Shown here piece by piece: positions 23,732 to 27,409 of a stretch of DNA of 64,000 bases (positions are counted from its first letter, which is position 1; each line of letters starts with the position of its first letter). Under the pieces are notes generated by a model. That model saw nothing but the letters and a program-made list of their open reading frames with translations. It did not search any database and was not told where the DNA came from. A program made the translations under genes and the position numbers. The stretch covers positions 1,184,001-1,248,000 of the forward strand of contig CAWIKF010000002.1 in NCBI GenBank assembly GCA_963836755.1, given 5' to 3'. The DNA is from an uncultured Verrucomicrobiae bacterium. Lineage in GTDB: Bacteria; Verrucomicrobiota; Verrucomicrobiia; Chthoniobacterales; Chthoniobacteraceae.

Positions 23732-24502
23732 TCACGCAAAGCGCGCGCGAAACATCGCGCTGACCCAGACGGAAAAGAGCCGCGCATTTCCCAAAAGCTC
23801 ATGCGCGAATGCCCGCGCGGTGACGTGCGGCGAGGCGATGATGAGCAGCAGCGTCAGCACGAGCAGATTCATCAAGTAAATGATGACGAGCGAAAAAAAC
23901 GTCCCGTAATACGTGAGGTCGGTTTGCCCGCGCGGAATCATCCAGAGCGTGAAGGAAATGTGGAAGGCCCATGTCGCGCCGATCAAGGCGTAGAGCCAGC
24001 GGTGATACGGCTCGACGTGATAGAACAAGCCGATGCCGCCGTAAATCGCGATGACGAGGATCGAGTAAAGCGGGAAAAAGTAGGGCGCGAGCGCGATCCA
24101 GAAATTGTGTTTGTCGCTGATGATGTGGCCGCCGTCGCTGCTGACGTTAAACTCGGAAACGCGGCCGCCCATCATCCAGACCCAGAGCGCGTGCGTCGCT
24201 TCGTGGCCGAAAACGTAGATCCAAAGCGGTCGCGGCAGGCCGAAAAAAACAATCGTCCAAAGCAGTGCTCCCAGCGCGAAAAACCAAAATTCTTCCGACG
24301 CCCAAAAATGATGCTGCAGCGTGGCGCGTGAGAAGCAGGAGAAAAAAGTTTTCGTCCAGATGCCGGCGAGCGGCAGCAGAAAGACGCCGATGACGGTGTT
24401 GATCCACCAAAGCGGAATCATCAGCGGCTCACGCGCGGCGCGACCCCGCGGCGAACGCTGAGTCGCAGCGGCGGGGCGTGGCTTGCGTCGGACGTTTGGC
24501 AT
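23732..24502 (-). CDS. Membrane protein, M50-like metallopeptidase
   Basis: Multiple TM helices, HEATH (HExxH), LAPYFFP. Confidence 0.65.
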   Translation of the reverse strand: MPNVRRKPRPAAATQRSPRGRAAREPLMIPLWWINTVIGVFLLPLAGIWTKTFFSCFSRATLQHHFWASEEFWFFALGALLWTIVFFGLPRPLWIYVFGHEATHALWVWMMGGRVSEFNVSSDGGHIISDKHNFWIALAPYFFPLYSILVIAIYGGIGLFYHVEPYHRWLYALIGATWAFHISFTLWMIPRGQTDLTYYGTFFSLVIIYLMNLLVLTLLLIIASPHVTARAFAHELLGNARLFSVWVSAMFRARFA

Positions 24503-24605
24503 GCGATGCAGCCATTTTTTGGCAGTCCCTCCACGCGATGTCGAAGAATCTGTTTCCGAATTTTATCCGCCGGCAAACGGACGAGCGCCAGGCTCGCGGG
24601 CAGAG

Positions 24606-25163
24606 CTACGCGCGGCCCATGTAGGCGCCGGTGCGCGTGTCGACTTTGATCAGCTCGCCTTCCTTGATGAAGAGCGGGACGGTGATGCTCTTCCCGGTTT
24701 CGAGCACGGCCGGTTTTTGCACGTTGTTCGCGCTGTCGCCGCGGACGCCTTCGGCGGACTCGATGACTTTGATGTGCACCGATGCGGGCATTTCCAGCTG
24801 GGCCGGTTTTCCCTCGATGGAAAGCACCTGCACCTTGAGATTTTCCACGAGATAATCTTTCCCGTCGCCGAGCAGAGCCTCATCGAGCGTGATCGTCTCG
24901 TAGGTGCCGGGGTCCATGAAGTGATAGCCCTGGTGATCTTTGTAGGAAAATTCCAGCTCCTGCCGTTGCACGTCCACCGTTTCGATTTTGTCCGTCGAGC
25001 CGAAGCGGACATCGGCGCTTTTGCCGGTATTAATATAGCGGATGATCGCCTGCACGAACGCGCGGAGATTGCCCGGCGTGCGGTGCTGGACTTCGAGGAC
25101 GATGGCCGGGTTGCCGTTGTAACGGATGGCCATGCCTTTGCGGAGATCGTTTGCGAGTGCCAT
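24606..25163 (-). CDS. efp: Elongation factor P
   Basis: ANDLRKG, HRTPGNLRAFV, VPLFIKEGE, DTRTGAYMGRA; 185 aa from ATG 25163. Confidence 0.97.
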   Translation of the reverse strand: MALANDLRKGMAIRYNGNPAIVLEVQHRTPGNLRAFVQAIIRYINTGKSADVRFGSTDKIETVDVQRQELEFSYKDHQGYHFMDPGTYETITLDEALLGDGKDYLVENLKVQVLSIEGKPAQLEMPASVHIKVIESAEGVRGDSANNVQKPAVLETGKSITVPLFIKEGELIKVDTRTGAYMGRA

Positions 25164-25196
25164 GGAGAAAGTGCGGTGGTTTGGAGGTGGGCGCGT

Positions 25197-25225
25197 AGTA
25201 TTGCCGCGCCTCCGTGTCGAGTCAA
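25197..25225 (-). promoter_or_regulatory. Sigma70-type promoter of efp
   Basis: Minus strand TTGACT-17 nt-AATACT upstream of the efp ATG. Confidence 0.6.
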
Positions 25226-25280
25226 AGGGAAGATTCTCCGCTCGCGGTGAATGGCGCGTGCCGCTCCTGCGGAAAAAGTT

Positions 25281-25490
25281 TCCGTCGCGACGGGAGGGTG
25301 CGGCTTCGCGACGGGAAGCGCTGCCGTCGCGACGGGATTCATTTCCTTCGCGACGGTTTTGATTTCCTTCGCCACGGGAAAGGCTGCCGTCCGCGCGGCG
25401 GCGATTCCCTTCGCGCCGGGCGGCGCATCCGTCGGGCGGGGAATGTTTCCCGTCGCGAAGCCGGGGATTCCCCTCGGGACGGGAAAGGCG
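25281..25490. repeat. Array of ten 21-bp degenerate tandem repeats with palindromic core
   Basis: Units start every 21 bp without indels (25281, 25302, 25323 ... 25470); consensus nCC(G/T)TCGCGACGGGA plus 6 variable nt; CCGTCGCGACGG is a perfect palindrome. Confidence 0.9.
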
Positions 25491-25565
25491 GGCGCGGGGA
25501 CGAATTGGCTTGCCGCGGGTCGGGCGGGCGGTTTCGATGCGGAGGAAGCGGAATTTTTTTGACCC

Positions 25566-26267
25566 ATGTCCACACCTTATTACCCTGAAACCATCGAAGG
25601 CCGCGCGGATTGGTGGCAAAACAAGATCGACAAGATCGGCATCATCACCGCGCTCGATGCCGAGGCCGCGCCGGCCATCCTCGAGGATGCGAAGATGGCG
25701 GTTTACCTCTATCGGACGCTGCCGGGGCTCTACGATACGTTCGTCGTCCAGGTGCACGGCTACATCAACTCCTACCTCACCGGCGCCGTGGGAACGCCCG
25801 CGCCGAAAGTGATGCCGCTGCCTGCCTGGCCAGCGATGCCCGTGACGGGCGTGGTCTCGGGAATCGAGGGCCGACGCGTGAAATGGGTGCCCGTTTTAAA
25901 AAACAGCACCGGCTATGAGCCGACGAACCAAGGAGTCGCGTTGCTGCTCGAGTCCGTGGGCGGGGCCTTCCAGCCGGACAGTTACAAGGCGGAGATCGTC
26001 TCGGTGGAAAGCCTGGCGGTGGCGCAGGTGATGGTGAAATTCCGCAAGGCGCGCGGTGCGATCACCGGCATGGCTTTCAACGGGCGCAAGACCGGGACCG
26101 GAACTTTCCTCGACCTCGGGCGCTTCACGGTGACGCCGGCGAGCCTGCACATCCCGATCGGCACGCCGGGGCAGGCGGAGCTGTGGGAAATCCAGGGGCA
26201 GGCGTTTAAGGGCGACACACTCATCGGCACGCCAAGCAGTATCTCGGAAGTGCTGGTGCGCGGGTAG
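25566..26267 (+). CDS. Hypothetical protein (predicted helical N-half, Pro-rich linker, beta-rich C-half)
   Basis: 233-aa ATG ORF with GC3-rich coding pattern; no signal peptide or recognised catalytic motif. Confidence 0.75.
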   Translation: MSTPYYPETIEGRADWWQNKIDKIGIITALDAEAAPAILEDAKMAVYLYRTLPGLYDTFVVQVHGYINSYLTGAVGTPAPKVMPLPAWPAMPVTGVVSGIEGRRVKWVPVLKNSTGYEPTNQGVALLLESVGGAFQPDSYKAEIVSVESLAVAQVMVKFRKARGAITGMAFNGRKTGTGTFLDLGRFTVTPASLHIPIGTPGQAELWEIQGQAFKGDTLIGTPSSISEVLVRG

Positions 26268-26293
26268 GGCGTGGCGACGGCGGGAACGCGCGT

Positions 26294-27409
26294 CTAGCTG
26301 TCGGTGCCCGGCGCGGTGCGGGACTCCATCGGGATGGCGTTGCGGAAATGGACGTCGCGCTGCGGAAACGGAATCTCGACGCCGGCGGCGCGAAGTTTTT
26401 TCTCAATGGCGAAGTTCAGGTCGCTGCGAAAGCGGCGCGGGCGATCGCTCATCTCGTTACTCCAGACGACGAGTTGAAAGTTGAGCGAGCTGTCGCCAAA
26501 CGCGTCGAAGAAAACCGTCGGCGCTGGATTCGCGAGCGCGGCCGGATGCTCGCGCGCGACCTCGATGAGGCAGGCGCAAACTTTTTCCACATCGGACCCG
26601 TAGGCGACGCCGATGGGGATGCGGAAGCGGACTTTGGGATCGCCGACGCTCCAGTTCGTGACGGTTTCTTTCACGAAATAGGAGTTCGGGACGATGAGGG
26701 CGATGTTGTCGTTGGTGACAATCGTCGTGCTGCGCGCGCGGATTTGGCGCACCGCGCCGGCGGCACTGCCGACCTCGACGCGGTCGCCGATGGCGATCGG
26801 GCGCTCGGCGAGAATGATGAGACCGCTGAGAAAGTTGCTCGCGATTTCCTGCAAGCCGAGGCCGACGCCGACACCGACCGCGCCTGCAAAAACCGTGAGA
26901 GCCGAGAGATCGATGCCCGCATTTTGCGCGACGACGAAACAGCCCAGGACGAGGACGACGTAGCCGGTGATCTGGCTCACCGTGTATTGCATCGCGCGGT
27001 CCATTCCGCTGCGCGAAAGGAAGCGGTTTAAAAGAAAACGCTTCGCGAGCGACGACGCCCAGAACACGAGCACGACCATCACGACGAGGCGCAAGATGCC
27101 GGTGAGGCTGAGGCCGATGCCCGGCAGCGGCGCCGCCCAATTGATCGGCAGCCCGGCGATGTTCAGCCCGATCAAGACCGCGGTCACGAAAACCGCGAGG
27201 CTCATGCAGGCGGTGACGAAGGCGACGACTCCTTTTTCCAGGCCGAACCGGGTGAGCCATCTCCGCATCCGCTCGCTTTGCAGAAAGCCGGACCCCGCAA
27301 GCCCGATGAGGAACGCAAGCCCGAAGCCAGCCATCCCCGCGATGGAAAGATGATGCCCGAAGAGCGGGAAGCGGTTTTCAAAAAGCCACGCGGAGTTCAT
27401 CCCTCCCAT
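26294..27409 (-). CDS. MscS family mechanosensitive ion channel
   Basis: GVGVGLGLQ..SNFLSG, IGDRVEV, IVPNS, FGDSSLNF, IPFPQR. Confidence 0.92.
   Translation of the reverse strand: MGGMNSAWLFENRFPLFGHHLSIAGMAGFGLAFLIGLAGSGFLQSERMRRWLTRFGLEKGVVAFVTACMSLAVFVTAVLIGLNIAGLPINWAAPLPGIGLSLTGILRLVVMVVLVFWASSLAKRFLLNRFLSRSGMDRAMQYTVSQITGYVVLVLGCFVVAQNAGIDLSALTVFAGAVGVGVGLGLQEIASNFLSGLIILAERPIAIGDRVEVGSAAGAVRQIRARSTTIVTNDNIALIVPNSYFVKETVTNWSVGDPKVRFRIPIGVAYGSDVEKVCACLIEVAREHPAALANPAPTVFFDAFGDSSLNFQLVVWSNEMSDRPRRFRSDLNFAIEKKLRAAGVEIPFPQRDVHFRNAIPMESRTAPGTDS

Follow-up and report, generated by a model that had tools for sequence, protein, structure and literature searches.

In a 64,000-nucleotide (nt) stretch of DNA from an uncultured Verrucomicrobiae bacterium (contig CAWIKF010000002.1 of assembly GCA_963836755.1, positions 1,184,001 to 1,248,000; hereafter the window), a tandem array of 21-base-pair (bp) units lies directly upstream of a gene for an uncharacterised protein of 233 amino acids (aa). 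Array and gene together make up a block of about 1.1 kb that distinguishes this genome from a congener, as an inserted or deleted segment, and the array belongs to the 233-aa gene rather than to efp on its other side. The 21-bp period is retained at 21 of 24 loci of the gene family. These come from one metagenome contig and six genomes, one of which belongs to another family of the phylum. The block is tentatively read here as an accessory cassette in which the array would work as DNA: an operator-like row of dyad protein-binding sites, set in helical phase and predicted to control the gene. This favoured reading is plausible, and falls slightly short of probable.

The linkage emerges from relatives of the 233-aa protein gathered from other genomes and from one metagenome contig. 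A search with a narrow alignment of the family gave just L022, the partial L023 and a dubious L024. For each locus, identity was computed at lags 8 to 39 in 147-bp stretches of the 500 bp upstream, and the lag of the highest value was taken; one locus at a contig end (L029) was excluded, and related family loci are not independent samples. Lag 21 was best at 18 of the 21 loci with enough upstream DNA in the first set, and at all three further loci in the congener, genome G002 (none of the three downstream), giving 21 of 24; one more locus is best at lag 20. (Upstream of L010, lag 20 scores 0.52 and lag 21 scores 0.51.) In the 500 bp downstream of the same genes, lag 21 was best in none of 22, or none of 25 with the G002 loci pooled. 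An earlier note on this DNA had proposed that array and gene form a module, and that a 21-bp period upstream of homologues, despite unrelated units, would support it; that check is positive. Within the present genome, a hidden Markov model of the family finds 7 members among 2,628 open reading frames (ORFs, roughly called with a simple codon-usage gene caller), and all seven face an array, each with a different unit.

A part in the regulation of efp was considered and rejected. Lag 21 was best in none of 22 other genomes when the 600 bp upstream of efp were examined, and the efp promoter of G002 is intact with no array beside it.

The block itself is defined by comparison with G002, which belongs to the same genus. 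DNA homology breaks off at about 25234 and picks up again near 26340: in G002 the 3' end of the MscS gene lies about 41 bp from the efp promoter region, whereas here 1,106 bp separate the same points. The C-terminal tail of MscS (26294-26345, minus strand) differs from its G002 orthologue over the last 17 codons or so, from the cassette boundary on; thus the inserted or deleted segment supplies the present tail and stop codon. The event is not polarised, because genome G001 has a different neighbour at this site and the MscS-efp adjacency is not kept in any other genome searched. Elsewhere in its genome, G002 does carry family genes with arrays.

The family has a patchy distribution. It was found in 9 of 61 relatives at E <=0.001, in 4 of 401 genomes of the phylum at E <=1e-8, and in metagenomes as 1455 clusters (50% identity) at E <=0.001, 587 of them at E <=1e-10. 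No relative appeared among 72,556 plasmid or 50,697 phage records.

Anatomy of the array and its gene

The features of the locus, in window positions, are as follows.

25235 to 26340, no strand: the segment of about 1.1 kb, comprising distal flank, array, leader, gene and 3' flank; absent at the same site in congeneric G002
25281 to 25511, plus strand: the 21-bp tandem array, ten units and a decayed eleventh (231 bp)
25566 to 26267, plus strand: the 233-aa gene
25235 to 25280, plus strand: distal flank of the array; CTCGCGGTGAATGG, at about 25241 to 25254, resembles by eye only a degenerate copy of the ACAGAGTAAA "head" motif
25512 to 25565, plus strand: short leader, from the last recognisable unit to the ATG, covered by the promoter scan
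26268 to 26340, plus strand: 3' flank of the segment, in which the convergent MscS gene has its last 17 or so codons and its stop (26294 to 26296, minus strand)
25197 to 25225, minus strand: efp promoter, TTGACT-17-AATACT; a neighbour and boundary marker outside the module, conserved in array-free G002
24606 to 25163, minus strand: efp, identified by Pfam

The flanks are thus those given in the earlier note, the efp promoter on one side and the 233-aa gene on the other.

The period is strict. Its description as ten units without indels plus a decayed eleventh stands: across 25281-25511, self-identity reaches 0.548, 0.571 and 0.595 at lags 21, 42 and 63, and none of 2000 dinucleotide-preserving shuffles reaches the observed lag-21 value (best shuffle value over lags 8-39: mean 0.358, maximum 0.422). 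Tandem Repeats Finder (TRF) reports period 21 at 25282-25337 (score 68) and at 25304-25379 (score 82, 0% indels), and a repeat search of the window found 86-nt copies at spacings of 21, 21, 21, 21 and 42 bp.

The palindrome is less regular than had been claimed. The exact 12-mer CCGTCGCGACGG, said to occur in each unit, is present only in units 1 and 3; one unit has a single mismatch and five have two. Across the window, matches with at most two mismatches number 16 against 12.45 expected, not above chance, and 8 of the 16 fall in register within the array. The register is therefore what is distinctive. The conserved core is (C/T)C(G/T)TCGCGACGG, the remaining 9 or so bases being variable; conserved columns are contiguous, a 12-column block against 9 variable columns (permutation p = 0.003), and the whole unit is self-complementary at 16 of 21 positions.

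Identity to the consensus for units 1 to 11 is 71, 95, 67, 67, 90, 43, 71, 62, 56, 76 and 52%. Units 1-5 are indeed nearer the consensus, as noted earlier, but the decay along the array is not significant (rho -0.44, p 0.17) and no such feature marks the family, in which units decay toward the gene in 9 of 17 arrays. At the level of base pairs, inspection by eye shows none of the five core palindrome pairs with a compensatory change on both sides, and 7 of the 11 units break pair 3 (G3-C10). Both observations speak against selection for a hairpin.

The array ends 52-57 bp before the ATG. A scan of 25100-26450 gave the efp promoter only and no sigma-70-like promoter in the leader. The promoter of the 233-aa gene must therefore, we infer, overlap or precede the proximal units.

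Beyond the gene, a unit-like sequence, CGTGGCGACGGCGGGAACGCG, lies at 26269-26289, 2 nt after the stop codon; compared with random windows, its match has p 0.035. As a cassette end this copy was rejected: when 17 other family loci were tested, the focal locus alone scored (1 of 18, chance level).

The array is non-coding. All six frames are open across it, because the 21-bp unit has no stop codons, and a 103-codon ORF (25251-25562, plus strand) running through it is judged an accident of that stop-free unit. The alternative, an N-terminal seven-residue repeat fused to the gene by TGA read-through, is scarcely tenable. It draws on the facts that this ORF is in frame with the gene with one TGA (25560-25562) between them, that 21 bp make seven codons, and that gene calls extend through the array in 5 of 14 database homologues. 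Those heptad extensions, however, are mutually unrelated; homologue alignment begins sharply at a conserved Met-x3-YYP start; the open frames upstream of most relatives close within 1-47 codons; and arrays of paralogues differ completely.

The 233-aa protein has no match in Pfam, NCBIfam, PHROGs or PADLOC, and its matches in a protein atlas are only unnamed Verrucomicrobiota clusters. By the AlphaFold2 model (mean predicted local distance difference test score, pLDDT, 89), it is a helical bundle followed by an Fn3 domain, of no recognised family in these four libraries. Helices span residues 10-72 and 100-125, with a Pro-rich linker (73-99) between them, and a beta sandwich occupies residues from about 135 to 233. 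The sandwich has the seven strands of the Fn3 fold and superposes on solved Fn3 domains: VIA-align gives Z 11.0, with a root-mean-square deviation of 2.4 A over 91 residues, against 2ibg_A, and Foldseek gives 100 matches at E <=0.001, nearly all Fn3 among the 40 or so listed. The Pfam fn3 model itself gave no score on the protein. Folded alone, the N-terminal domain is also modelled well (pLDDT 90.5, predicted template-modelling score 0.79), and fold comparison returned nothing informative (best Z 5.4, best Foldseek E 4.6). The N-terminal half is acidic (isoelectric point, pI, about 5); the C-terminal half is basic in most members (pI about 9) and carries the conserved motifs RR.KW, FRKA.G and GRK. 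No signal peptide is obvious by eye.

Arrays in the family and across the genome

Array length in the family ranges from 5 to 22 units and clusters at about 10-14. Among the family loci, several have peculiarities of their own. At L003 (G018:C33), 150-420 bp upstream, the units are non-palindromic (TGAGGTG...) and flip orientation within the array, the last three copies lying on the other strand; a duplicated fragment of the leader and first gene codons sits between array and real start. At L004/L013 (G040:C9:149921-150524) the family gene is broken, with two matching pieces and an internal TGA, and an upstream array of about 22 units is kept, with units that resemble the focal one (TTCGC...CATTCC). 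At L011 (G054:C7) array and gene are bracketed by direct repeats of about 140 bp, one about 330-470 bp upstream of the start and the other forming the first 140 bp or so after the stop codon. Each of these repeats holds a long inverted repeat (GTTGTAGCGTCGAGCC...GGCTCGACGCTACAAC), like a miniature inverted-repeat transposable element (MITE) or a recombination site.

The most informative comparison for unit sequence is with L022 (identical to P0006), the closest orthologue of the focal locus, L001, for which DNA is available. The two proteins share 62% amino-acid identity, and the coding DNA is 71.5% identical. The metagenomic L022 array has 13-14 units and ends about 13-35 bp from the ATG; it keeps the half-sites CCGTC-N2-GACGG and includes one nearly identical 21-mer. 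Profile similarity between the two arrays (0.74) stands at the 98.8th percentile of 2016 array pairs, and most of the higher pairs are duplicates within the present genome. Half-sites kept while centre and spacer drift look like the pattern of an operator for a symmetric dimer.

The paralogues L010 and L014 present a different picture. Their DNA is 79% identical from -112 to the stop codon, leader included, and their arrays are unrelated. Units are therefore either long retained or replaced outright. In the tree, L001 and L022 share one supported clade (97/94), and L010 and L014 fall in another. Co-variation of half-sites with protein clade found no support in a pattern search of 301 genomes, which returned 24 genomes (reversed control, 1): clear arrays make up only 4 of the 19 loci in other genomes, and the one with a family gene (L067) belongs to a distant subfamily.

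The block is not isolated. TRF on the whole genome yields 308 rows, with period 21 in 111, 42 in 39, 63 in 18 and 84 in 8. Merged, they make about 63 arrays (at least 90 bp each) of many different units, some more than 85% homogeneous; many of these arrays lack such a gene. Examples in G000, the present genome, are C1:29628-29972, C1:645609-645936, C2:1021285-1021511 and C4:55943-56229. On the search for other copies that the earlier note had proposed, the 15-mer of unit 1 occurs once in the 3.18-Mb genome. Unit families span 2-6 loci in this genome. Arrays of the L010 type (GGTGGCCACC) and the L014 type (CCTAGGATTTT) occur at loci without a family gene, in G000 at C1:29628-29972, C1:630193-630427 and C2:713515-713736, and at C2:350694-350902 and C2:1587420-1587620. 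The GGTGGCCACC set has a conserved flank of about 45 bp in common. Other small helical-protein families face arrays too.

By the same rough gene calls, 38 of the 53 arrays of at least 150 bp are intergenic. A preference for promoter-bearing gaps was dropped as a candidate, the distribution being the same as background. Dyad symmetry of the whole unit (at least 15 of 21 positions) is enriched but limited to a minority: 5 of 40 arrays have it, compared with 69 of 4000 random intergenic 21-mers. The idea of an AT-rich bend block common to the units was likewise discarded (4.20, against 4.25 and 4.47 in shuffles). No AT block in common was found, and this was the one within-unit motif for which a search was made.

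The flanking motif ACAGAGTAAA accompanies only about 10 arrays. It has 11 genomic copies, 8 of them within 120 bp of an array, a zone that covers 0.9% of the genome, and 2 more beside short arrays. The eight in G000 are at C1:29994, C1:228983, C1:630455, C1:703285, C2:713758, C2:729129, C2:751974 and C2:133600; seven point into the array, mostly from 15-45 bp outside it. AACCTCCT often lies about 16 nt upstream of ACAGAGTAAA. Candidate roles for the motif are promoter element, cassette end and binding site.

Comparison with known repeat systems

Several well-studied systems place short, regularly spaced repeats beside a gene. In ParR/parC, tandem 10-20-bp repeats lie upstream of the operon for their binder and overlap its promoter, and binding is cooperative and helically phased. 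Iterons are phased direct repeats of 17-22 bp beside the gene for a specific Rep protein, with sequences that differ between related replicons. Regulators with a LytTR domain bind 9-bp direct repeats with a 12-bp spacer, two repeats in all.

The focal array shares with ParR/parC its tandem, phased layout directly upstream of a gene. It differs in having no ribbon-helix-helix (RHH) protein and no ParM or ParA partner, in being chromosomal, in having dozens of counterparts in one genome, and in finding no relatives among the plasmid records; a type II partition system is therefore rejected, the neighbours being efp and MscS and the gene showing no RHH or nucleoside triphosphatase signal. With iterons it shares tandem repeats of 17-22 bp in helical phase. 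An iteron/Rep replicon is rejected nonetheless, because the protein has no Rep or winged-helix signal, no Pfam or NCBIfam match, and a predicted fold of helical bundle and Fn3 domain; origin features were not found either, and the copies are far too numerous for one chromosome. That the array is the iteron or centromere of an integrated replicon or partition system, analogous to Rep/iteron or ParR/parC, is accordingly far-fetched: unit length, tandem phasing and position upstream of a gene are what resemble iterons and parC, and against them stand about 63 arrays in one chromosome, a gene with no match to the Rep, RHH, ParA and ParM families and with efp and MscS for neighbours, and no relative in the plasmid and phage records. 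LytTR sites have the same 21-bp centre-to-centre spacing upstream of a gene, but arrays here have 5-22 units and no LytTR signal accompanies them.

By its anatomy the array is neither a CRISPR (clustered regularly interspaced short palindromic repeats) array nor parS, as the earlier note had held. Its 21-bp unit with some 6-9 variable bases contrasts with CRISPR repeats of about 23-50 nt and unique spacers of similar length; polar growth of the CRISPR kind, with the best-kept repeats near the leader and a degenerate last one, was rejected because only 9 of 17 arrays decay toward the gene. No cas gene was found by Pfam among the four nearest genes (233-aa, 256-aa, efp and MscS), a scan narrower than the window, and the 233-aa protein has no PADLOC match. 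The same scan identified efp and MscS and left the 233-aa and 256-aa genes without a match. The core, CCGTCGCGACGG, is not the 16-bp parS palindrome, and none of these four genes matches ParB.

The closest precedent is a catalogue of constant-length, 20-21-nt, non-coding tandem repeats in bacteria, mainly in Bacillus, whose function is described as unknown and which the authors call enigmatic (Subirana and Messeguer, PMC8161180). They propose a polymerising protein or transcription. The focal array shares these features of the class: units of 20-21 nt in at least four copies (here 10-11 units of 21 bp), non-coding sequence, and many arrays of one length and different sequence, some grouped in families. 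Fixed two-turn length, sequence differences from array to array and several sequence families per genome are common to both. The class is further described by a short characteristic sequence common to all repeats of a species; in the present genome no common AT block was found, and the flanking ACAGAGTAAA goes with about 10 arrays only. Unlike the catalogued repeats, the arrays here go with one particular uncharacterised gene family, and array and gene behave together as a cassette.

The module had been called apparently undescribed. The repeat class is in print; the link to a gene is not mentioned in the main text of PMC8161180, from which the words upstream, promoter, adjacent, intergenic and Verrucomicrobia are absent. 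Nor was any link between such arrays and a gene family found in the literature, including a term search of PMC6749651 (article texts without their supplements).

Possible readers of the array

Five features lead to the favoured reading of the array as a DNA-level platform: the two-turn period, the dyad core, the conserved half-sites, a position that reaches the promoter region, and tight linkage to one gene family. In outline, a protein would bind as symmetric dimers, one to each unit and all on the same face of the helix; neighbouring bound dimers would touch every two turns; and occupancy would extend to the promoter, since only about 55 bp separate the array from the ATG. The binder could be the cassette's own product, with its basic Fn3 half as candidate, or a host factor. 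We lean slightly toward the product: a genome with dozens of different units would call for as many readers, and nothing but the cassette protein co-occurs with the array. This is the weakest step of the model.

A number of observations weigh against this model. The paralogues L010 and L014 are 74% identical (175/235) and yet have unrelated arrays (similarity 0.15, 0.2th percentile), so that a cognate reader would have switched specificity quickly. This genome has about 63 arrays and 7-8 family genes, and arrays of the same unit stand beside unrelated genes or none (GGTGGCCACC at 4 loci, CCTAGGATTTT at 3). Two family loci have no array and are best at other lags: L025 (G049), and L023, whose match to the gene is limited to the C-terminal half. 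A contiguous conserved block was found in only 3 of 16 arrays, by a test that ignores 1-bp slips. Intergenic arrays occur in tandem, divergent and convergent gaps in a ratio of 25/9/4, background-like beside 372/163/81 for all gaps, on the rough gene calls. For the 233-aa gene itself, the scan of 25100-26450 placed no promoter. The protein has no known DNA-binding fold, its N-terminal domain being acidic with uninformative matches and its C-terminal domain a generic Fn3. Finally, PMC8161180 reports such arrays from phyla where this family was not found, and within its own phylum the family was found in 4 of 401 genomes.

Many of the same observations would suit a satellite read by its geometry. 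A general, nucleoid-associated host protein would need only the two-turn spacing, and the gene family would be an adjacent "client" whose product is not the reader. One period across dozens of unrelated units fits this idea, as do gene-less arrays, same-unit arrays beside unrelated genes, near-identical paralogues with unrelated arrays, and a 233-aa protein without a DNA-binding fold. It is in keeping, too, with the reported occurrence of the class in other phyla and with the polymerising protein and nucleoid role suggested in PMC8161180. However, no feature common to all units was found (AT blocks are not enriched, and only 5 of 40 are strongly dyad-symmetric), the half-sites are conserved between species at L001 and L022, and linkage to one gene family at 21 of 24 loci needs further explanation. 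On balance a geometry-read satellite is unlikely. A fast-evolving, largely neutral or selfish minisatellite is about as unlikely. Here, some replication or repair process that prefers 21 bp would seed arrays in the non-coding heads of horizontally moving cassettes, with little effect on the gene. Complete turnover of arrays between 74%-identical paralogues would follow naturally; higher-order periods of 42, 63 and 84 bp point to block duplications; and decay without polarity (9 of 17), conserved blocks in just 3 of 16 arrays, and gap orientations that match background are all consistent with it. Against it, the period is retained at 21 of 24 loci from one metagenome contig and six genomes, one of them from another family of the phylum; the L001 and L022 half-sites are kept at only 71.5% coding-DNA identity; and array lengths cluster at about 10-14 units. 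No mutational process is known to have a 21-bp ruler.

Action at the RNA level is quite improbable. The array would be transcribed as a long 5' leader or a separate RNA, and its tandem hairpins would bind protein or tune translation or stability. Proximal units are probably transcribed, because the array ends about 55 bp from the ATG (about 13-35 bp at L022), and ACAGAGTAAA, oriented toward the array in 7 of 8 nearby cases, is a possible promoter element; transcription of such repeats is also raised in PMC8161180. Predicted folding is strong, at -164.1 kcal/mol against -143.2 +/- 4.4 for shuffles (z -4.7), but this is trivial because the array is self-complementary. A perfect palindrome of 12 nt allows at most a 4-bp stem with a 4-nt loop; its five core pairs show no compensatory change by eye, with pair 3 broken in 7 of 11 units. 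Many arrays of the family and the genome have non-palindromic units, those of L003 flip orientation within the array, and no Rfam match was found at E <=1 in 24000-27000.

A bolder extension of the platform reading would make these cassettes an address together with its reader. The helical/Fn3 protein would polymerise along its own 21-bp array into a nucleoprotein filament, and same-unit arrays elsewhere would be targets in trans. The whole would be a private DNA-addressing system that spreads horizontally and serves to silence, to insulate or to organise the chromosome. Rather unlikely as it is, this idea would explain constant-length 20-21-nt repeats.

At this locus, an enigmatic class of repeats gains a testable handle: an array tied to one uncharacterised gene family, with which it shares presence and absence between congeners as a 1.1-kb block. 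The retention of dyad half-sites between L001 and L022 argues, at the level of sequence comparison, for sequence-specific reading. If the gene product reads its own array, it would represent a new class of DNA-binding protein, a helical bundle joined to an Fn3 domain, and a new portable cis/trans pair. If the product is not the reader, the arrays would still mark a geometry-based element placed before horizontally acquired genes.

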